Of a DNA stretch of 6,700 nt, positions 1 to 6,700 are shown piece by piece. The notes under the pieces were generated by a model, which ran no database searches, had not been told where the DNA came from, and saw only the letters and a program-made list of their open reading frames with translations. The translations under genes and the position numbers were made by a program. The stretch is taken from the IMG/VR virus record IMGVR_UViG_3300045988_151348; one strand, written 5' to 3'. Numbering within the stretch: the first letter of the stretch is position 1; each line of letters begins with the position of its first letter. Origin of the DNA: a virus.

Positions 1-95
1 GCTCGTTGAGGAGGGCGTCCGTCAAAATCCTGCCTTTGTGCAAAACGGAGAAAATGTTGCAAAAACGGGTCAAATAGGCGATATCGTATCCCCAT
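1..95. repeat. Left arm of a ~95-bp inverted repeat that closes the window (partner 6605-6700)
   Basis: The reverse complement of 6646-6700 equals 1-55 exactly. Positions 56-95 keep matching 6605-6645 with 3 substitutions (56, 71, 89) and one 1-bp indel. Similarity stops at CCCCAT (90-95) / ATGGGG (6605-6610). The arm contains direct TGYKGCAAAA-type motifs at 37-48 and 55-69, with a third at 105-121 just inside the arm. Confidence 0.95.
81..95 (-). other. Inverted, unoccupied third copy of the prophage att core
   Basis: The minus strand reads ATGGGGATACGATAT, 14/15 identical to the direct repeat at 1633-1647 and 6605-6619. It is followed outward by CGCCTATTTGACCCG, the same flank that follows attR (TCGCCTATTTAACCCG). 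Confidence 0.6.
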
Positions 96-258
96 TCGCG
101 GATTTGTGTTGCAAAATCAGGTGTTTTCGGGTGTTTCTCGATCCACTTACCGTGGCATGCCGTTCCCGTAACTGAACCGGGAACTCACCTTGGCCCACCA
201 TCAATTGCACGCTCATATTACACCCGGCTTTCCCGCCCGTCAACCGCTTTGGCCGATT

Positions 259-310
259 TGTAACTCACCTGTAACATTCCCGTATTTTTGTTACACCGTT
301 TGTTACACCG
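259..310. promoter_or_regulatory. Operator-like array: two direct TGTAAC half-sites facing two GTTACA half-sites
   Basis: TGTAAC lies at 259-264 and 270-275 (11-bp period). GTTACA lies at 290-295 and 302-307, inside a perfect 12-bp tandem repeat TTTGTTACACCG (287-298, 299-310). The overall dyad is centred near 283. No adjacent gene is visible, so the function is unknown. Confidence 0.4.
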
Positions 311-732: not shown

Positions 733-830
733 GCCGCCGTCAGGCGGCAAATGTGGCGCCGCTGTCAAGCGGCAAATGTGGCGCCGCTGTCAAGCGGCAA
801 ATGTCGCACCGCCCTCAGGCGGCAGATCTC
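733..830. repeat. Four tandem ~25-bp units, each with a short GC stem-loop, abutting the hsp20 stop codon
   Basis: The units start at 733, 758, 783 and 808. Units 2 and 3 (GCCGCTGTCAAGCGGCAAATGTGGC / ...GTCGC) differ at one base. Each unit holds GCCGC-N6-GCGGC or a variant. The last unit overlaps the TGA of hsp20 (829-831 on +). They may act as a 3' stabiliser or terminator for the minus-strand transcript. Confidence 0.85.
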
Positions 831-1269
831 ACTCGATCGCCAGTCTCCGGCTGCCGGAAACCTCGACATCCTTCTTCGGCAGCGTCAGGCTCAGCACGCC
901 GTCGTTGTAGCTGGCCTTGATGCCCTCGGCCTTGACGCCGGAGATATCGAAGCTCCTCGCGTAGCTGCCGTAGCTGCGCTCGCAGCGGACGTAGCTCTTG
1001 TCCTTCTCCTCGTGCTCGTTCTTGCGCTCGGCCTTGATGGTCAGGTTGTCGCCGTCGATGTCGATGGCGATGTCCTCCTTCTTCATGCCGGGCAGATCGG
1101 CCTCGAGCAGGTAATGGTCGCCCTTGTCCTGAATGTCGGTCTTGAACGTGCCGACGTCGCCGAGGAAGTCGCGGTTGCCGAAGAACGCGCGCTCCAGCGC
1201 CTCCATGTCGCGGAACGGGTCATAGGTGGTCATGTGGTTATTGTTGCGGTAAGGTCTCAGTTCAAACAT
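829..1269 (-). CDS. hsp20: Small heat-shock protein, Hsp20/alpha-crystallin family (146 aa)
   Basis: The translation has the alpha-crystallin core typical of clostridial Hsp18-type proteins (FKTDIQDKGDHYLLEADLPGMKKEDIAIDIDGDNLTIKAERK...RSFDISGV...IKASYNDGVLSLTLPKK). A GGAGG Shine-Dalgarno (complement of 1278-1282) lies 8 nt before the ATG at 1269-1267. Codon usage is GC-rich. Confidence 0.93.
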   Translation of the reverse strand: MFELRPYRNNNHMTTYDPFRDMEALERAFFGNRDFLGDVGTFKTDIQDKGDHYLLEADLPGMKKEDIAIDIDGDNLTIKAERKNEHEEKDKSYVRCERSYGSYARSFDISGVKAEGIKASYNDGVLSLTLPKKDVEVSGSRRLAIE

Positions 1270-1397
1270 AATGAATACCTCCGAAAATTCGAGATTTGGA
1301 AAGCCTCGGGAGCTTGCCTTCCTTTGCTTTTCTTGACTCAGAGTCTACCCCGGAATTGTGTCCAAAGATACGCATTTGTGTGAACGGACTATGAATT

Positions 1398-1424
1398 TTA
1401 GCACTCTCGCTCTAAGAGTGCTAA
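1398..1424. promoter_or_regulatory. CIRCE element (HrcA operator)
   Basis: TTAGCACTC-TCGCTCTAA-GAGTGCTAA is a perfect match to the consensus TTAGCACTC-N9-GAGTGCTAA. It lies 128 bp upstream of the hsp20 start codon and 208 bp from the prophage attL core. Confidence 0.9.
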
Positions 1425-1474
1425 AAGCGTCGGATTTTGTTGCATTTGACGGGCAGCCTGCCCCAAAACCGTCC

Positions 1475-1496
1475 ATGTCTACCCGATGTCTACCCG
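1475..1496 (+). repeat. Perfect tandem 11-bp repeat ATGTCTACCCG x2 (GTCTACCC iterons 2 and 3 of 5)
   Basis: GTCTACCC occurs at 1477-1484 and 1488-1495. The same 8-mer in the same orientation also occurs at 1343-1350, 1546-1553 and 1558-1565. Confidence 0.8.
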
Positions 1497-1543
1497 CCGA
1501 AACGCCTGGGGCGCAAGGGTTTGCGGGTTTTCCGAGAGGGTCG

Positions 1544-1567
1544 CCGTCTACCCTTCCGTCTACCCAA
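1544..1567 (+). repeat. Tandem 12-bp repeat CCGTCTACCCTT / CCGTCTACCCAA (GTCTACCC iterons 4 and 5)
   Basis: The repeat is directly visible. It lies 66-89 bp left of the attL core. A short hairpin, CGCAA-GGGT-TTGCG (1512-1525), sits between the two iteron pairs. Confidence 0.8.
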
Positions 1568-1630
1568 TTTTTCGCGCCGATTCCCGAAGCGCCTGCTATT
1601 TCTGCGAAAATTTTTGAAATTTCTGAAAAT

Positions 1631-1655
1631 GTATGGGGGTACGATATCCCCATAC
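1631..1655. other. attL junction: perfect 25-bp palindrome containing the 15-bp att core (1633-1647)
   Basis: GTATGGGG-GTACGATAT-CCCCATAC has 8-bp arms and a 9-nt spacer. The GC-rich to AT-richer composition change occurs here. The core ATGGGGGTACGATAT is repeated exactly at 6605-6619. Confidence 0.75.
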
Positions 1656-1670
1656 GAAGAAGGTGATTTC

Positions 1671-2684
1671 TTGCCATGCTATCATCCGCTTAAAGCCTTT
1701 GTTTTAGGTGAAAAAGACGGTAAACGGTTGCTCAAGGTGACGTGCTATGAGGTAGACCATCTCGAGCGTGCTGGTGAAGGTTTTGCGTGTTGCACACATC
1801 CCGCTTATGGCCGTCTCGGTGATGTTACGGAGTTCATCGAAATTCCCTGCGGAAAGTGTTCCGGCTGTCGGCTTCAGAGATCGCGTGAGTGGGCTAATCG
1901 TTGTATGCTCGAGCTTGAATACCACAAGTCGAGTTACTTCGTCACTCTGACTTATGATGATGCTCATGTTCCGATTCATTATTATTCCGATCCGGAGACC
2001 GGTGAGGCCCTGCCGAGTATGTCTCTTGTGAAGCGAGATTTTCAACTTTTTATGAAGCGTCTCCGGAAGAAATTCGGTGAAGGTATTCGATTTTTTGCAT
2101 CTGGAGAGTATGGTTCTCTGACGTTTCGCCCTCACTATCATGCAATCATTTTTGGATTGGAGCTTGATGATCTTGTTCCCTATAAGCGATCTGCGCAAGG
2201 TTTTCAATATTTTAATTCTGTGTCACTGCAGGACGTCTGGCCGAATGGCTTTGCTGTTGTTGCTCCGGTGACTTGGGAGACCTGTGCTTATACTGCCCGT
2301 TATGTCATGAAGAAGCTTACCGGCCCTGAAGCTGAGTTCTACGAGAATTTTAATATTCTTCCTGAGTTTTCGCTTATGTCGCGGAAGCCCGGTATTGCCC
2401 GAAAGTATTACGAGGATCATCCCGACATATATGAACATGAGTTCATCAACATTTCGACTGAGAAAGGAGGTAGGAAGTTTCGACCTCCGAAGTATTATGA
2501 TAAATTGTTTGATCTCGATTGTCCGGAAGAATCTGCCAAGCTTAAAGCTGTTCGTCAGAAGATGGCAGCTGAAGCTCAGAAAGCAAAATTACAAAAAACC
2601 ACACTTAGTTATTTAGACCAGCTTGCCGTTGAAGAACGGAATCAGCTGGCCCGAATAAAATCATTGAAAAGGAGTTGTATCTAA
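1671..2684 (+). CDS. VP4: Replication initiation protein VP4 (HUH rolling-circle endonuclease)
   Basis: Motifs: N-terminal LPCYHPLKAF; Cys cluster CGKCSGCRLQRSREWANRC; motif 1 YFVTLTYDD; HUH motif HYHAIIF (HYH at 2133-2141); catalytic YTARYVMKK (Tyr codons at 2289 and 2301). I place the start at TTG 1671, preceded by GAAGGTGA (1657-1664). ATG 1629, on the host side of the junction, is an in-frame alternative. The 1437 start in the ORF track runs into GC-rich host DNA and is unlikely. Confidence 0.9.
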   Translation: MPCYHPLKAFVLGEKDGKRLLKVTCYEVDHLERAGEGFACCTHPAYGRLGDVTEFIEIPCGKCSGCRLQRSREWANRCMLELEYHKSSYFVTLTYDDAHVPIHYYSDPETGEALPSMSLVKRDFQLFMKRLRKKFGEGIRFFASGEYGSLTFRPHYHAIIFGLELDDLVPYKRSAQGFQYFNSVSLQDVWPNGFAVVAPVTWETCAYTARYVMKKLTGPEAEFYENFNILPEFSLMSRKPGIARKYYEDHPDIYEHEFINISTEKGGRKFRPPKYYDKLFDLDCPEESAKLKAVRQKMAAEAQKAKLQKTTLSYLDQLAVEERNQLARIKSLKRSCI

Positions 2685-2797
2685 TGCGTAAACCTATGCG
2701 TCCCAAGAAAGACAAGAAGGTCTTTCGCCGTACTGCTGCGAAGTCCAAGAAGATTAACATTAACCCGACTGTTTTCCGTGGAGGTATCCGGCTTTGA
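2684..2797 (+). CDS. Small basic DNA-binding/packaging peptide (phiX174 J / gokushovirus VP8-like), 37 aa
   Basis: MRKPMRPKKDKKVFRRTAAKSKKININPTVFRGGIRL is strongly Lys/Arg-rich. An AAGGAG Shine-Dalgarno lies at 2669-2674. The ATG overlaps the VP4 stop (TAATG, 2682-2686). It is below the size cutoff of the ORF track. Confidence 0.8.
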   Translation: MRKPMRPKKDKKVFRRTAAKSKKININPTVFRGGIRL

Positions 2798-2958
2798 AGT
2801 TTGAATTGACTGTTGGTGTTTATGACGGTGATGATCTTGTTGATACTGTTTGTTATGTTGTTCCCGCTGAGCCTTTGGCTCGTATTTTTGCTCAGATTCC
2901 TGAGGATTCCGTTGTTGTTTCGGTAAGTATTGAAGGTGTAAAGGAGTTGTACGAATGA
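2794..2958 (+). CDS. Hypothetical small acidic protein, 54 aa (TTG start)
   Basis: MKFELTVGVYDGDDLVDTVCYVVPAEPLARIFAQIPEDSVVVSVSIEGVKELYE. GGAGGT (2780-2785) lies 8 nt upstream. The TTG overlaps the preceding stop (TTGA) and its own stop overlaps the next ATG (ATGA, 2955-2958). Without this ORF, a compact genome would have 157 nt of non-coding DNA here. I do not recognise a family. Confidence 0.5.
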   Translation: MKFELTVGVYDGDDLVDTVCYVVPAEPLARIFAQIPEDSVVVSVSIEGVKELYE

Positions 2959-3206
2959 AATACGGTGTTTATTCTATCCGCGATGCCCGTACGGGCTTTC
3001 TTCCGCCTACGGTTGATCAGAACGATTCTTCCGCGATGCGGAATTTCGCTCATGCCTGTATGCAGAAGGAAAGCCTTCTGTTTTCCCACATTGAGGATTA
3101 TGCCCTTTGTAAGATCGGCGAGTTTGACAATGAGACTGGCACGATTTTGACGCAGCTCCCCGTGGTTATTTTGGATGGTACGTCCATCCAGAGAAAGGAT
3201 GTTTGA
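2955..3206 (+). CDS. Conserved small microvirus non-structural protein (possibly VP5-like), 83 aa
   Basis: An AAGGAG Shine-Dalgarno (2941-2946) lies 8 nt before the ATG. The N-terminus MKYGVYSIRDARTGFLPPTVDQNDSSAMRNFAHAC resembles, from memory, a small protein common in gokushovirus genomes between VP4 and VP3. The functional assignment is tentative. Confidence 0.7.
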   Translation: MKYGVYSIRDARTGFLPPTVDQNDSSAMRNFAHACMQKESLLFSHIEDYALCKIGEFDNETGTILTQLPVVILDGTSIQRKDV

Positions 3207-3208
3207 TT

Positions 3209-3709
3209 ATGTATGATGAAAAGCTTAGATTCGCTACTCAGTATCGTCCGAGAACTCGTTTCCCTTCAAATCTTGGTGAGCGCGAAAGGATTCTCTATCA
3301 GCCTAAGTTTGATGAAAATGGAGTTATGGATCTCGTTGAGTCTGGCCGAGAAGACCTTTACGATTTCATTCAATCGCACGCAGAGTCTGTTGACATCCAC
3401 GTGATTCTTGCTCGATATCAGAATGGCGACATTGACGCGCTTTCGCGTGTCCAGGGCGCTTATGGTGATTTTTCCAATATGCCCACGTCTTATGCTGAAC
3501 TCTTGAACAGGGTTAATGAAGGTCAGAGTTTTTTCAATTCTCTTCCGGTTGATATTCGCGCGAAGTTCAATCATAATTTCGCGGAGTTTATGGCTGGTAT
3601 GGACAAGCCTGATTTCCTTGACAAGCTCGGAATCAAGCCCGAGCGAGAGTCTGACCCGTCCCAGGAGGAAAAACCGGCTGTTGAGCCGAAAAAGGAGGTT
3701 ACGGAATGA
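3209..3709 (+). CDS. VP3: Internal scaffolding protein VP3
   Basis: Its position immediately upstream of VP1 and its sequence character fit VP3 (DLYDFIQSHAESVDIHVILARYQNGD...GDFSNMPTSYAELLNRVNEGQSFFNSLPVDIRAKFNHNFAEF, acidic/Lys-rich tail). ATG 3209 lies 9 nt after AAAGGA. TTG 3203, which overlaps the previous stop as TTGA, is an alternative start. The stop overlaps the VP1 ATG (ATGA, 3706-3709). Confidence 0.85.
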   Translation: MYDEKLRFATQYRPRTRFPSNLGERERILYQPKFDENGVMDLVESGREDLYDFIQSHAESVDIHVILARYQNGDIDALSRVQGAYGDFSNMPTSYAELLNRVNEGQSFFNSLPVDIRAKFNHNFAEFMAGMDKPDFLDKLGIKPERESDPSQEEKPAVEPKKEVTE

Positions 3710-5403
3710 ACCGCAATGTTGAATCCCATTTCGCGCTTAATCCCACGAATATCGATATCCGGCGTTCGACGTTTGATCGCTCGCATTCTCTTAAGACTTC
3801 GTTTAACGTTGGTGACATTGTACCTTTTTTCGTTGACGAAGTATTACCGGGAGATACGTTCAACGTGGACACATCCAAAGTTGTGCGTTTGCAGACGTTG
3901 CTTACTCCGGTCATGGATAACATCTATCTTGACACATATTTCTTCTTCGTACCGAACCGGCTTACTTGGAGTCATTGGAAGCAGTTCAACGGTGAGAATA
4001 CGGAATCTGCTTGGATTCCTCAGACCGAGTATGAAATACCTCAAATTACTGCTCCTGCTGATAGCGGATGGTCTGTTGGAACTATTGCCGATTATCTCGG
4101 TGTGCCTACCGGCGTTCCTAATCTTTCCGTTAGTGCTCTTCCCTTCCGAGCTTATGCCTTGGTAATGAATGAGTGGTTTCGTGATGAAAACCTATCTGAC
4201 CCGCTCGTTGTTCCCGTCGATGATGCTACTGTAGCCGGTGTGAATACCGGTACGTTTGTGACCGATGTTGCGAAAGGCGGTCTTCCTTATAAGGCCGCTA
4301 AGTATCACGACTATTTTACAAGCTGTCTTCCGTCTCCCCAGAAAGGCCCGGATGTTTTGATTCCCTCGGCCACGTCCGGCGAGTATCCTGTCGTTACCCG
4401 TGAACAGCCTCATGATCCCGGTGGATTTGTTTTAACTGGTCTTTCTAATATTTCTTTTGCTTCTGGAGATCGACCGGTTAATATCTATGATTCTCTTGCT
4501 TTCAAGCCTGTTTCTGCTGGTTCTAATTATGCTGGCATTACTGGTTTAAGTGGTGGTGCTGATAAGCCCGGTTTTGATCCTGTTAACCTTTATGCTGTTG
4601 CTTCCGGTGGTCTTGGTGCTTCCATTAATCAGCTTCGCATGGCGTTTCAGATTCAGAAGCTCTATGAGAAAGACGCCCGTGGTGGTTCCCGATATATCGA
4701 GATTCTTAAGTCTCATTTCGGTGTGACTTCTCCCGATGCCCGTCTTCAGCGTCCCGAATATCTCGGTGGTAACCGTGTCCCCATCAATATTAATCAGGTT
4801 GTCCAGCAGTCGGCTACGGCCTCCGGCGAGACTGCACAGGGTACTGTCACCGGTATGTCTGTCACTACGGATACGCATTCCGATTTTACCAAATCTTTTA
4901 CTGAGCATGGCTTTGTCATTGGCGTTATGGTTGCTCGTTACGATCATACTTATCAGCAGGGCCTTGAACGTTTCTGGTCTCGTAAGGATCGCTTTGACTA
5001 TTATTGGCCTGTTTTTGCTAACATCGGTGAGCAGGCTGTGAAGAACAAGGAGATTTTTGCTCAAGGTCCGTCTGTTAAGGATTCTGCTGGTGCTGTCATC
5101 GATGATCAGGTTTTCGGTTATCAGGAAGCGTGGGCCGATTACCGCTACAAGCCGTCCCGCGTCACTGGCGAAATGCGTTCTCAGTACGCGCAGTCCCTTG
5201 ATGTTTGGCATTTGGCTGATGACTATTCTGCTTTGCCTATGCTTTCGGATTCGTGGATTCGTGAGGATAAGACAAATGTGGATCGTGTGCTTGCAGTCAC
5301 ATCTTCTGTTAGCAATCAGTTGTTTGCCGATATCTACATCAAGAACCGGACTACCCGTCCGATGCCGATGTACTCTATCCCCGGTCTGATCGACCATCAT
5401 TGA
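3706..5403 (+). CDS. VP1: Major capsid protein VP1 (Microviridae F-protein family), 565 aa
   Basis: Hallmark N-terminus HFALNPTNIDIRRSTFDRSHSLKTSFNVGDIVPFFVDEVLPGDTF. Also FFFVPNRL, ALPFRAYALVMNEWFRD, INQLRMAFQIQKLYEKDARGGSRYIEILKSHFGV..D.RLQRPEYLGG. A long Gly/Ser-rich insertion (roughly 4380-4620) matches the surface-loop insertion typical of gokushoviruses. An AAGGAGGT Shine-Dalgarno lies at 3692-3699. Confidence 0.97.
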   Translation: MNRNVESHFALNPTNIDIRRSTFDRSHSLKTSFNVGDIVPFFVDEVLPGDTFNVDTSKVVRLQTLLTPVMDNIYLDTYFFFVPNRLTWSHWKQFNGENTESAWIPQTEYEIPQITAPADSGWSVGTIADYLGVPTGVPNLSVSALPFRAYALVMNEWFRDENLSDPLVVPVDDATVAGVNTGTFVTDVAKGGLPYKAAKYHDYFTSCLPSPQKGPDVLIPSATSGEYPVVTREQPHDPGGFVLTGLSNISFASGDRPVNIYDSLAFKPVSAGSNYAGITGLSGGADKPGFDPVNLYAVASGGLGASINQLRMAFQIQKLYEKDARGGSRYIEILKSHFGVTSPDARLQRPEYLGGNRVPININQVVQQSATASGETAQGTVTGMSVTTDTHSDFTKSFTEHGFVIGVMVARYDHTYQQGLERFWSRKDRFDYYWPVFANIGEQAVKNKEIFAQGPSVKDSAGAVIDDQVFGYQEAWADYRYKPSRVTGEMRSQYAQSLDVWHLADDYSALPMLSDSWIREDKTNVDRVLAVTSSVSNQLFADIYIKNRTTRPMPMYSIPGLIDHH

Positions 5404-5414
5404 GAGGTGATCTA

Positions 5415-6239
5415 ATGACTACTGGTAAGGATGCTGCTCAGATTCAGAGCGTTCCTGCTGTTGGTAATTTGGATTCTGCTCTTTCCCGTATTACGAGGAC
5501 TGCTTCAGAAAACACCGCTAAAAGCGCTCAGATGGCTTCTGAGCAACGCGATTGGCAGGAAAGGCAAAATGCCTTGGCTATGCAATTTAACGCTCAGGAG
5601 GCTGCTAAAAGCCGTTCTTGGCAGGAATACATGAGCAATACTGCGCACCAGCGTGAAATTCGTGATCTTAAGGCAGCCGGTTTGAATCCGGTTTTAAGTG
5701 CTATGGGAGGTAACGGCGCTGCCGTTACCTCCGGCGCTACCGCTTCCGGCGTTACCTCTGCCGGAGCTAAAGGCGAGGTTGATACCTCTGCTAATGCTGC
5801 TTTGGTTCAGGTTCTCGGTTCTATTCTTTCTGCACAGACTCAGCTTCAGACCGCTAACGTTAATGCTCGGACGCAAGAGGCCGTTGCCGATAAGTATACC
5901 GCGATGGAAAAACTTGTTGCTCAGATTGGCGCCGATGCTTCTAAATATGGTGCTGAGCTTGGTTATGCTGGCTCTAAGTATAATGCCAATATGCATTATG
6001 CTCTTGGTAAGTATCAGACTGATAAAGGATTTGAGAATCAGGTTTTTCTTGAGCAGAATTATCCTTCTAACTATGTTCAAGCTGTTAATTCTATTCTCAA
6101 GGCTCTTGGTCTTGATGTTACAGGAGGTTCTACCTCCGGTGAAGGTTCTGTTTCTGCTGAACAGTATGCTAAACTTATGGAAAAGTATAATGCTGCTCTT
6201 CTTGGTTCAGGTCCTAAACGTTCTAAGCATCAGAGATAA
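5415..6239 (+). CDS. VP2: Minor capsid / DNA pilot protein VP2
   Basis: It has the conserved VP2 core WQEYMSNTAHQREIRDLKAAGLNPVLS, followed by a Gly/Ala/Ser-rich region. GAGGTG (5404-5409) lies 5 nt before ATG 5415. TTG 5400, which overlaps the VP1 stop as TTGA, is an alternative start. Confidence 0.9.
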   Translation: MTTGKDAAQIQSVPAVGNLDSALSRITRTASENTAKSAQMASEQRDWQERQNALAMQFNAQEAAKSRSWQEYMSNTAHQREIRDLKAAGLNPVLSAMGGNGAAVTSGATASGVTSAGAKGEVDTSANAALVQVLGSILSAQTQLQTANVNARTQEAVADKYTAMEKLVAQIGADASKYGAELGYAGSKYNANMHYALGKYQTDKGFENQVFLEQNYPSNYVQAVNSILKALGLDVTGGSTSGEGSVSAEQYAKLMEKYNAALLGSGPKRSKHQR

Positions 6240-6241
6240 AG

Positions 6242-6283
6242 AAAACAGAAAACTCCGGAGCTGTGCTTCGGAGTTTCTGTTTT
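6242..6283 (+). terminator. Intrinsic-terminator-like hairpin after VP2
   Basis: AAAACAGAAAACTCCGGAGC-TGT-GCTTCGGAGTTTCTGTTTT forms a ~20-bp stem with one bulged A and one G-T pair. It ends in TTTT and starts 3 nt after the VP2 stop codon. Confidence 0.75.
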
Positions 6284-6321
6284 GTAACCAAGCGTGAGCG
6301 CGGTTAGCGAATAGATATGCA

Positions 6322-6341
6322 CCAGCGAGCGCCAGCGAGCG
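6322..6341 (+). repeat. Perfect 10-bp tandem repeat CCAGCGAGCG x2 in a GC-rich patch of the phage intergenic region
   Basis: The repeat is directly visible. A related AGCGTGAGCG occurs at 6291-6300. The patch (about 6291-6345) is clearly more GC-rich than the rest of the phage. Confidence 0.7.
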
Positions 6342-6345
6342 GACA

Positions 6346-6378
6346 CAGCCCCATTACTCTCTTGATGTAATGGGGCTG
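6346..6378. other. 12-bp-stem hairpin in the phage intergenic region (candidate origin or protein-binding structure)
   Basis: CAGCCCCATTAC-TCTCTTGAT-GTAATGGGGCTG has a perfect stem and a 9-nt loop. The arms (CCCCATTAC / GTAATGGGG) are near-copies of the att palindrome arms (CCCCATAC / GTATGGGG). Confidence 0.8.
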
Positions 6379-6416
6379 AGTGACACCACGATATGCAAAA
6401 TGCTCTCTTTAGTTTA

Positions 6417-6444
6417 TTGACAAGCTATGAATATATGATATATT
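6417..6444 (+). promoter_or_regulatory. Near-consensus sigma70/sigmaA-type promoter with extended -10
   Basis: -35 TTGACA (6417-6422), 16-bp spacer, TG (6436-6437), -10 TATATT (6439-6444). It lies about 30 nt upstream of the ATG at 6475, which is preceded by AAGGTG (6464-6469). Confidence 0.7.
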
Positions 6445-6474
6445 AATGAATATAATAAACTGTAAGGTGATTAA

Positions 6475-6582
6475 ATGAAAAATGATGATAAAGATAAAAT
6501 GCTTGATGATTTTTGTTTACAGATGCTTTTGCTTGTTGGAGCTGGTGTTGCTCTAGTTGTTATTATTTGTTCTTTTCTTTGA
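6475..6582 (+). CDS. 35-aa peptide with a charged N-terminus and one predicted transmembrane helix
   Basis: MKNDDKDKMLDDFCLQMLLLVGAGVALVVIICSFL. There is a good Shine-Dalgarno 5 nt upstream and a strong promoter directly upstream. The hydrophobic stretch of about 20 residues is long enough to span a membrane. It is below the ORF-track cutoff. Confidence 0.6.
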   Translation: MKNDDKDKMLDDFCLQMLLLVGAGVALVVIICSFL

Positions 6583-6604
6583 TTTGTCCTCCTGAATTTC
6601 TGTG

Positions 6605-6619
6605 ATGGGGGTACGATAT
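6605..6619 (+). other. attR core, exact copy of 1633-1647
   Basis: ATGGGGGTACGATAT. Weaker similarity continues to the left (TGAATTTCTG at 6593-6602 versus TGAAATTTCTG at 1615-1625). To the right the sequence becomes the inverted-repeat arm shared with 1-80. Confidence 0.75.
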
Positions 6620-6700
6620 TCGCCTATTTAACCCGTTTTTGCAATATTTTCTCCGTTTTGCACAAAGGCAGGATTTTGACGGACGCCCTCCTCAACGAGC
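6605..6700. repeat. Right arm of the window-closing inverted repeat (partner 1-95)
   Basis: See the left arm. The outer 55 bp are identical and the inner ~40 bp are slightly diverged. Confidence 0.95.

Follow-up and report, generated by a model that had tools for sequence, protein, structure and literature searches.

The window analysed here (the whole 6,700-nt stretch of the virus record IMGVR_UViG_3300045988_151348) is bounded by a collapsed inverted repeat, which is formed by the starts of two cell-surface (SLH) genes and whose core is probably the recombination site used by the host for the shuffling of these genes and parasitised by a microvirus without an integrase. In the proposed mechanism, host recombination at the core, by inversion or deletion, would re-pair the SLH genes with two types of flanks, named T and P, and each re-pairing would switch the SLH protein that is expressed. 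A microvirus with a palindromic attP would insert at the P-type sites with the aid of a putative host recombinase, and small rolling-circle (RCR) elements would in this way be parasites of the host SLH-gene shuffling system.

Organization of the Locus

The loci compared in this work were found through the exact hsp20 protein of the window, and they comprise many long contigs (L001-L010) and the isolate Oscillibacter sp. MSJ-31 (L011-L012). In every such locus, the 1.5-kb segment bearing hsp20 is located between two large genes (900-1100 aa) which read outward and contain, according to Pfam, N-terminal SLH domains at residues 25-66 and beyond. Each copy of the repeat is composed of a 15-bp core, a leader of ~178 nt and the first ~750 nt of the coding region, that is, the signal peptide and the SLH domains. 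Most of the compared contigs are metagenome assemblies, in which mis-joins across the near-identical 180-nt leader may occur.

Positions 1..80 of the window (minus strand) are the first 80 nt of the conserved leader of the T-side SLH gene, which reads leftward out of the window. On the right, positions 6620..6700 (plus strand) belong to the leader of the SLH gene at the P side; this gene is of type A and is read rightward, away from the window. The ATG of the SLH gene lies 193 nt from the start of the core and ~99 nt beyond each end of the window. For instance, in L002, which is 99.6% identical to the window, position 1 of the window is position 11271 and the SLH gene starts at 11370. The arm sequence is found in more than 100 copies across 110 loci.

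Each leader contains the motif TTTTGCA(A/C)CA (36-64, 107-116, and 6637-6665) two times, and a single copy lies in the T flank at a distance of 12 nt from the core (six matches against 1.25 expected). The leader segment CATTTTCTCCGTTTTGCACAAAGG has a 25-nt copy upstream of other P copies as well (L012 3328-3353 and L111 8850-8873). At the other end of the SLH genes, a convergent gene of 191-202 aa with no Pfam match is located 3′ of every SLH paralogue in L001-L010. These small genes are paralogous to each other (97.7% over 640 nt in L004), which indicates that the duplicated unit exceeds the SLH gene.

Positions 96-1632 are host DNA, with a GC content of 50-63% up to ~1650 and 36-51% beyond. 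The cargo of the invertible segment is hsp20 (829..1269, minus strand, 146 aa; PF00011, E = 3e-23). Its promoter-like site, TTAGCA-18-TAAAAT (1395..1424, minus strand), which like all promoters in this work is a consensus match only, overlaps a perfect CIRCE element, that is, the HrcA operator (TTAGCACTC-N9-GAGTGCTAA, 1398-1424). Thus, a small heat-shock gene with predicted control of the HrcA type sits within the invertible segment. Directly downstream of the hsp20 stop codon there is a 19-bp palindrome (689-727), and after it come four tandem units of 25 bp (728-852), each a GC hairpin of the form GCCGCC-N4-GGCGGC. The copy number and the sequence of these units differ among strains, and they may insulate hsp20 from the T flank or terminate transcription between the two.

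The two flanks of the segment are distinct. The T flank (96..298, minus strand) exists in one copy in every examined locus and is 98-99% conserved. It contains a sigma-70-like predicted promoter, TTGACG-17-TAATAT (215..243, minus strand), which is aimed at the first core and the left SLH gene and has an unchanged spacing to the core in 60 out of 64 T flanks. The P flank (1464..1632, plus strand) is multi-copy (several copies are found in 20 kb) and has four GTCTACCC boxes. Together with a fifth box at 1343, just upstream of the P flank, there are five such boxes (1343-1565), all on the plus strand, where 0.09 would be expected by chance. They are arranged as two pairs spaced by 11-12 nt and one box further upstream, and this arrangement is conserved in every P-flank copy. 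The consensus promoter scan of the P flank and the leader gave no promoter-like site facing the gene. From these sequences we infer that the T flank would be the expression site, and that the P flank would be either a silent or regulated upstream region or an accessory arm needed by the recombinase.

The Core and the Position of Strand Exchange

The core, ATGGGGR-TACGATA-T, is 15 bp long and is located at the inner edge of the repeat. In the preliminary description, each arm closed inward with an att core, and both arms do so, as the reverse complement of 81-95 is ATGGGGATACGATAT and positions 6605-6619 are ATGGGGGTACGATAT. The att character of the core is also real, because the same sequence forms attP in free phages and attL and attR in lysogens.

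There are three copies of the core in the window. The first one (81..95, minus strand; reverse complement ATGGGGA-TACGATA-T) is the T site, which is intact and unoccupied. The second (1633..1647, plus strand) is attL, formed by the P flank, ATGGGGGTACGATAT and the phage sequence CCCCAT, and it is in direct orientation to the right copy. The third (6605..6619, plus strand) is attR, which joins the end of the phage through ATGGGGGTACGATAT to the arm. This attR (6615-6624) has an extra T after the core (TACGATAT-T-CGCC, that is, ATAT-T-CGCC) compared with more than 80 other sites, and at core position 7 it carries the G of the host type. The extra T could impair excision or inversion at this site.

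The junctions of the phage were determined in forty viral contigs in which the core is followed by CCCCAT. In free circular microviruses, attP consists of the end of the phage, ATGGGGA-TACGATA-TCCCCAT and the Rep side, and is a perfect palindrome. In all 24 integrated copies with a visible left junction, attL is composed of the P flank, ATGGGGG and the rest of the core, and CCCCAT. At the visible right junctions, attR is composed of the end of the phage, ATGGGGA and the rest of the core, and the arm (CGCCTATTT). Core position 7 is G in the host and A in the phage, and its base goes with the left flank; the bases at positions 15-16 go with the right flank. These flank-linked polymorphisms place the strand exchange inside TACGATA.

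Inverted half-sites of 7 bp around an overlap of 7 bp are a layout typical of tyrosine recombinases, and judging from this sequence layout, the putative host enzyme acting at the core is probably a tyrosine recombinase. No gene of this family (PF00589) was found within 10 kb on either side of the segment in ten loci, and the serine recombinases present in the same regions are part of variable mobile elements. A stretch of 20 kb holds three to four cores, which occur in both orientations and each adjoin an SLH leader, and they are not a single chromosomal dimer-resolution site. The core shows no XerD arm of the TTATGT type and is not dif-like, when compared by eye with the dif sites of E. coli and B. 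subtilis. A weak resemblance to a XerC arm with a spacer exists at the end of the P flank; this candidate dif-like site was rejected, since the exchange maps to TACGATA and the XerD arm is missing. The scan for tRNA and tmRNA genes was negative for the window, and thus the core is not a tRNA att site. Rfam gave no match at gathering thresholds for the window and L007.

The cores of L002 (9623-9637 and 11175-11195) have one or two extra bases each (GATAATCGCC and GATAATTCGCC), despite the 99.6% identity of this contig to the window. L002 may be a long-read assembly, and these bases may be systematic base-calling errors at a GATATC motif, which might hint at methylation.

Other Partners of the P Flank and Host-Only Events

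The P flank is the left partner in every integration and in every junction at a secondary (pseudo-) site that was seen. A Rep_trans replicon (PF02486, phrog_27843) is placed to the right of P and the core, and its truncated remnant is found in several loci. In detail, the element at P and the core is located in L111 (9036-10024), and remnants are located in L007 (1-496), L005 (20277-20441) and at the ends of L112 and L113. Most copies retain a stub of 58 aa only, and among the viral contigs truncated remnants were found but no full-length Rep_trans element. In L111, the Rep_trans ORF extends into a palindromic core in inverted orientation (ATGGGGATACGATATCCCCCC, around 9907-9927). The microvirus attR can be joined to a Rep_trans remnant, and this forms a tandem array. 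In L007, at 100-200 on the minus strand of the locus, a perfect TTGACA-17-TATAAT lies 3′ of the Rep_trans remnant and is followed by a non-coding stretch that looks structured.

In two further cases, P and the core are joined to other sequences. The one partner is a truncated ICE-like gene, with TACGATAC directly followed by TCTCGACC, and the other is an internal site of an SLH coding region, with TACGATAC directly followed by CATCAGC. An event that involves host DNA exclusively separates L002 from L006, both at least 99.6% identical to the window, as 6.5 kb between two copies of P and the core are deleted in one of them. Based on the SNPs of the flanks, the crossover of this deletion is located between core positions 7 and 15.

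Shuffling of SLH Genes

The preliminary description had pointed out that the geometry of the repeat would allow inversion. This is the case, as a simple inversion of the hsp20 segment distinguishes L005 from L007, according to their gene order and sequence comparison. Both orientations and the alternative pairings of genes and flanks are seen between samples, and not within one clone. Heterogeneity within a sample was considered for CDYU01 and was rejected, because the T-bearing contigs L109 and L110 are overlapping neighbors with 0 mismatches.

In order to type the SLH genes, the variable parts of 81 arms were clustered. Type A adjoins P in 8 loci, plus 4 with the phage, and T in 19 loci, and type B adjoins P in 2 loci and T in 11. 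Types D, F, and G are also present at both flanks. Genes of the same type at different flanks are 97.6% identical at 196-450, 95.6% at 451-700, and 95.5% at 701-940. The respective values for different types at the same flank are 88.9%, 79.2%, and 71.5%. The identity of the repeat at 196-940 follows the type of the gene and not the flank, and the exchanges by which genes change flanks therefore lie upstream of nt 196, within either the core or the leader.

With an identity of 96-97% everywhere, the leader is uninformative on the position of the exchange. The leader SNPs at +11 and +26 are found in all four combinations at both flanks, and no association of leader SNPs with the type of the gene or the flank was found. 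Leaders are slightly more alike within than between genomes (p = 0.05). The mosaic SNPs and this likeness make it likely that homologous exchange or gene conversion has to some extent taken place in the leader, and the L005/L007 inversion cannot be assigned to the core. The arms are uninformative near the core, and gene conversion has apparently made the two arms of L007 alike (99.3% identity). In conclusion, exchange at the short core holds for the phage integration, for the pseudo-site junctions and for the L002/L006 deletion, and the inversion is placed only upstream of nt 196.

These data also bear on an alternative in which everything is due to homologous recombination, that is, RecA-dependent exchange between the paralogous 5′ parts of the SLH genes, with the core as a mere attachment site of the phage. 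Such an explanation is in accordance with the length of the repeat (~1 kb) and its identity (88-99%), with the mosaic leader haplotypes, with the weak signal of concerted evolution, and with the lack of a recombinase gene within 10 kb on either side in ten loci. Nevertheless, it is considered unlikely. In more than 100 copies, the core is the exact point at which the homology of the P and T flanks stops, and the coding part of the repeat goes with the gene instead of the flank. The L002/L006 crossover falls within 8 bp at the extreme end of 183 bp of homology, and the non-homologous pseudo-site junctions have only TACGATA in common. In addition, a phage without an integrase would still require a host enzyme that recognizes the core. 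The preferred explanation thus remains site-specific exchange at the core by a putative host recombinase.

The Microvirus Prophage

The prophage (1648..6604, plus strand) sits exactly in the core and has a unit length of 4972 bp including one core. Its genes are Rep (1671-2684), whose TTG start at 1671 is 24 nt downstream of attP, a 37-aa ORF (2684-2797), ORF5 (2955-3206), the scaffold (3209-3709), capsid F (3706-5403), and the pilot gene (5415-6239), which is followed at its 3′ end by a strong terminator-like hairpin (6250..6276, plus strand). The assignment to Microviridae is based on capsid F, Rep, pilot, scaffold, and ORF5 within ~5 kb (Pfam and PHROG matches) and on the existence of a free circular counterpart. 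Among the free genomes, OP549876.1 (5050 bp, human) comes closest, with a capsid identity of 98%. No ORF of the prophage matched an integrase or recombinase family.

The best promoter-like site of the phage, TTGACA-16-TATATT (6417..6444, plus strand), has 11 out of 12 matches to the consensus and is located ~190 nt upstream of attP. A hydrophobic ORF of 35 aa (MKNDDKDKMLDDFCLQMLLLVGAGVALVVIICSFL, 6475-6582) is placed between this site and attP/attR. It has no family match and is conserved in the free relatives of the phage, and its product could be a membrane or lysis peptide. In the orientation of the prophage, the promoter-like site reads through this ORF and attR into the SLH leader. Since the predicted promoter lies upstream of attP and the start of Rep downstream of it, integration splits the promoter from rep and the structural genes, and by this geometry the phage promoter would be redirected into the SLH leader.

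The preliminary description also saw in this arrangement a second, empty integration site. Its core at the T site is indeed intact, but its role as a site of integration is doubtful. The T flank is joined to an SLH arm in 58 out of 58 metagenome contigs and to the phage in none, and the 24 integrated phages of the viral contigs with a visible left junction are all at P-flank sites. In the viral and metagenome contigs examined, no junction of T, core, and phage was found.

A bolder extension, held tentatively and with a rather low probability, is that the microvirus not only borrows the recombinase of the host SLH shufflon but has its lysogeny wired into that switch. The integrated rep and structural genes would lie behind an apparently promoter-less P flank, and the prophage would be silent without a repressor. 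The phage promoter reading into the downstream SLH gene would alter the cell surface. An inversion by the host between the T site (81-95) and attL (1633-1647) would bring the T-flank promoter before rep and result in induction. Such an inversion would account for the lack of recovered junctions between T, core, and phage.

The position of attP relative to Rep allows one more explanation, in which the phage Rep mediates the integration. The core would be the rolling-circle origin, an HUH Rep would nick and join at host sites of similar sequence, and the host rearrangements would be by-products of infection. In its support, the single-stranded attP folds into a 9-bp stem with a 3-nt loop (-7.7 kcal/mol, z = -2.7) just 24 nt upstream of the Rep start, and both types of elements at the core are rolling-circle replicons. 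This explanation is nonetheless very improbable for several reasons. The Rep families REP_ORF2-G2P and Rep_trans are unrelated, and both are found with the same core. Integration gives reciprocal products, and on either side of them the polymorphisms are linked to the flanks. Phage-free strains, an isolate among them, also have conserved cores upstream of their SLH genes, and rearrangements of the host alone occur at the core.

The Ends of the Window

In terms of assembly, the window is a de Bruijn unitig with k=55, derived from an Oscillibacter of the human gut. The initial claim that 1-95 is the reverse complement of 6605-6700 was confirmed by alignment and with a repeat finder. Bases 1-55 are identical, and the differences of the arms are G/A at 56, C/T at 71, T/C at 89, and one extra base after 80 (three substitutions and one indel). 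A 95-nt repeat with four differences inside 6.7 kb is far above the chance expectation.

The 55 identical bases had been tentatively attributed to the k-mer overlap of the assembler, and the comparison shows this to be correct. The architecture of the window and an exact 55-nt terminal inverted repeat are found in three independent contigs of 6.6-6.8 kb (L027, L082, and L086). The exact terminal repeat is 55 nt in L061 and L075 too, and 127 nt in L096, and circular phage contigs have direct terminal repeats of 55 nt. As the first mismatch of the arms is at 56, the window consists of a unique inner path and one shared k-mer per end. The longer inverted repeat that was supposed to have collapsed at the ends does exist, since ten long contigs and the isolate MSJ-31 carry it in full (945-1060 bp, 88-99% identity; e.g., L002-L010 and, with both arms, the isolate contig L011). 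In the near-identical strains L002, L006, and L008, the identity of the arms persists further outward. A practical lesson is that terminal inverted repeats of length k on short contigs can mark invertible segments.

The open frame up to the TAG at 75-77 had been described correctly, along with its Met/Ile change (ATG/ATA at 54-56) and its synonymous Val (GTC/GTT at 69-71). Its interpretation was wrong, as the arms are the non-coding 5′ leaders of divergent, outward-reading SLH paralogues. The idea that the arms are the 3′ ends of convergent paralogues, suggested by a frame that runs from each edge up to a stop codon and shows one conservative and one synonymous change, or that the second arm is a fold-back or MDA artefact, retains practically no probability, because the flanking genes of all full-length loci begin ~99 nt outside the window and read outward, and the same inverted layout is found in the isolate genome and in dozens of independent assemblies.

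Comparison with Known Systems

To our knowledge, the action of XerCD at dif-like sites has been the sole explanation offered for the lysogeny of microviruses, and the hosts concerned were nearly all Gram-negative. The locus described here suggests a second route, in which a microvirus common in the human gut would parasitise the crossover site of the surface-gene shuffling of Oscillibacter. If this is true, a host is assigned to a widespread group of gut microviruses, a previously undescribed system of SLH/S-layer variation exists in Oscillospiraceae, and the integration of a phage, possibly also its induction and the conversion of the cell surface, is tied to the phase variation of the host. 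The literature search showed no phage that uses a phase-variation or shufflon site, no microvirus prophage in Oscillibacter, and no such system in this genus. In a survey of 2022, the isolates of Gram-positive bacteria (Firmicutes) reported to carry microvirus prophages came from only two genera (PMC9239249).

The IMEX are ssDNA phages without an integrase which use the host XerCD at dif, such as CTXphi, the microvirus proviruses of Bacteroidales (PMC3091885) and the gokushovirus prophages of E. coli (PMC7062461). Similarly to them, the present element is a small rolling-circle phage without a recombinase gene, with a short attP that resembles the host site and with reciprocal attL and attR. 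Different elements are also stacked in tandem at one site, in this case the microvirus beside the Rep_trans remnant. On the contrary, the present site is a 7-7-7 (or 9-3-9) palindrome, in which no XerD-type TTATGT arm is recognized by eye. It is multi-copy within 20 kb in both orientations, is always placed at the boundary of an SLH leader, and bounds rearrangements of the host.

In the sap locus of C. fetus and in slpA/slpB of L. acidophilus, opposed S-layer homologues with long conserved 5′ regions surround an invertible segment of a few kb that bears the promoter. The exchange in C. fetus sap is RecA-dependent and happens inside the conserved 5′ coding region. The present locus is similar in its opposed surface genes and in the conserved 5′ regions that flank a segment with a predicted promoter. 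It differs from C. fetus sap in that the coding repeat stays with the gene and the mapped exchanges lie in a 7-bp core upstream of the leader.

The vpma, vsp, and vsa systems of Mycoplasma (Xer1 and HvsR; PMC2268961) are comparable in that a family of surface genes has a conserved 5′ untranslated region which holds the recombination site. In those systems, as is predicted here, one unique flank bears the promoter, and site-specific inversions re-pair the genes with it. More than 100 arms have an identical core and a leader conserved at 96-97% before paralogous surface genes, as multigene inversion systems require. Unlike vpma, the present loci have no adjacent recombinase gene, the proteins are anchored to the wall through SLH domains, the host is clostridial and there is a second, multi-copy flank (P). 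For the present locus, a switching of expression as in vpma is a prediction.

The RecV switches of C. difficile, such as cwpV (PMC2784873), are similar in combining a cell-wall protein locus of a Firmicute with DNA inversion, and they indicate that the recombinase need not be linked. In cwpV, a single short invertible element lies between the promoter and the gene, whereas in Oscillibacter whole genes swap their flanks and a phage uses the site.
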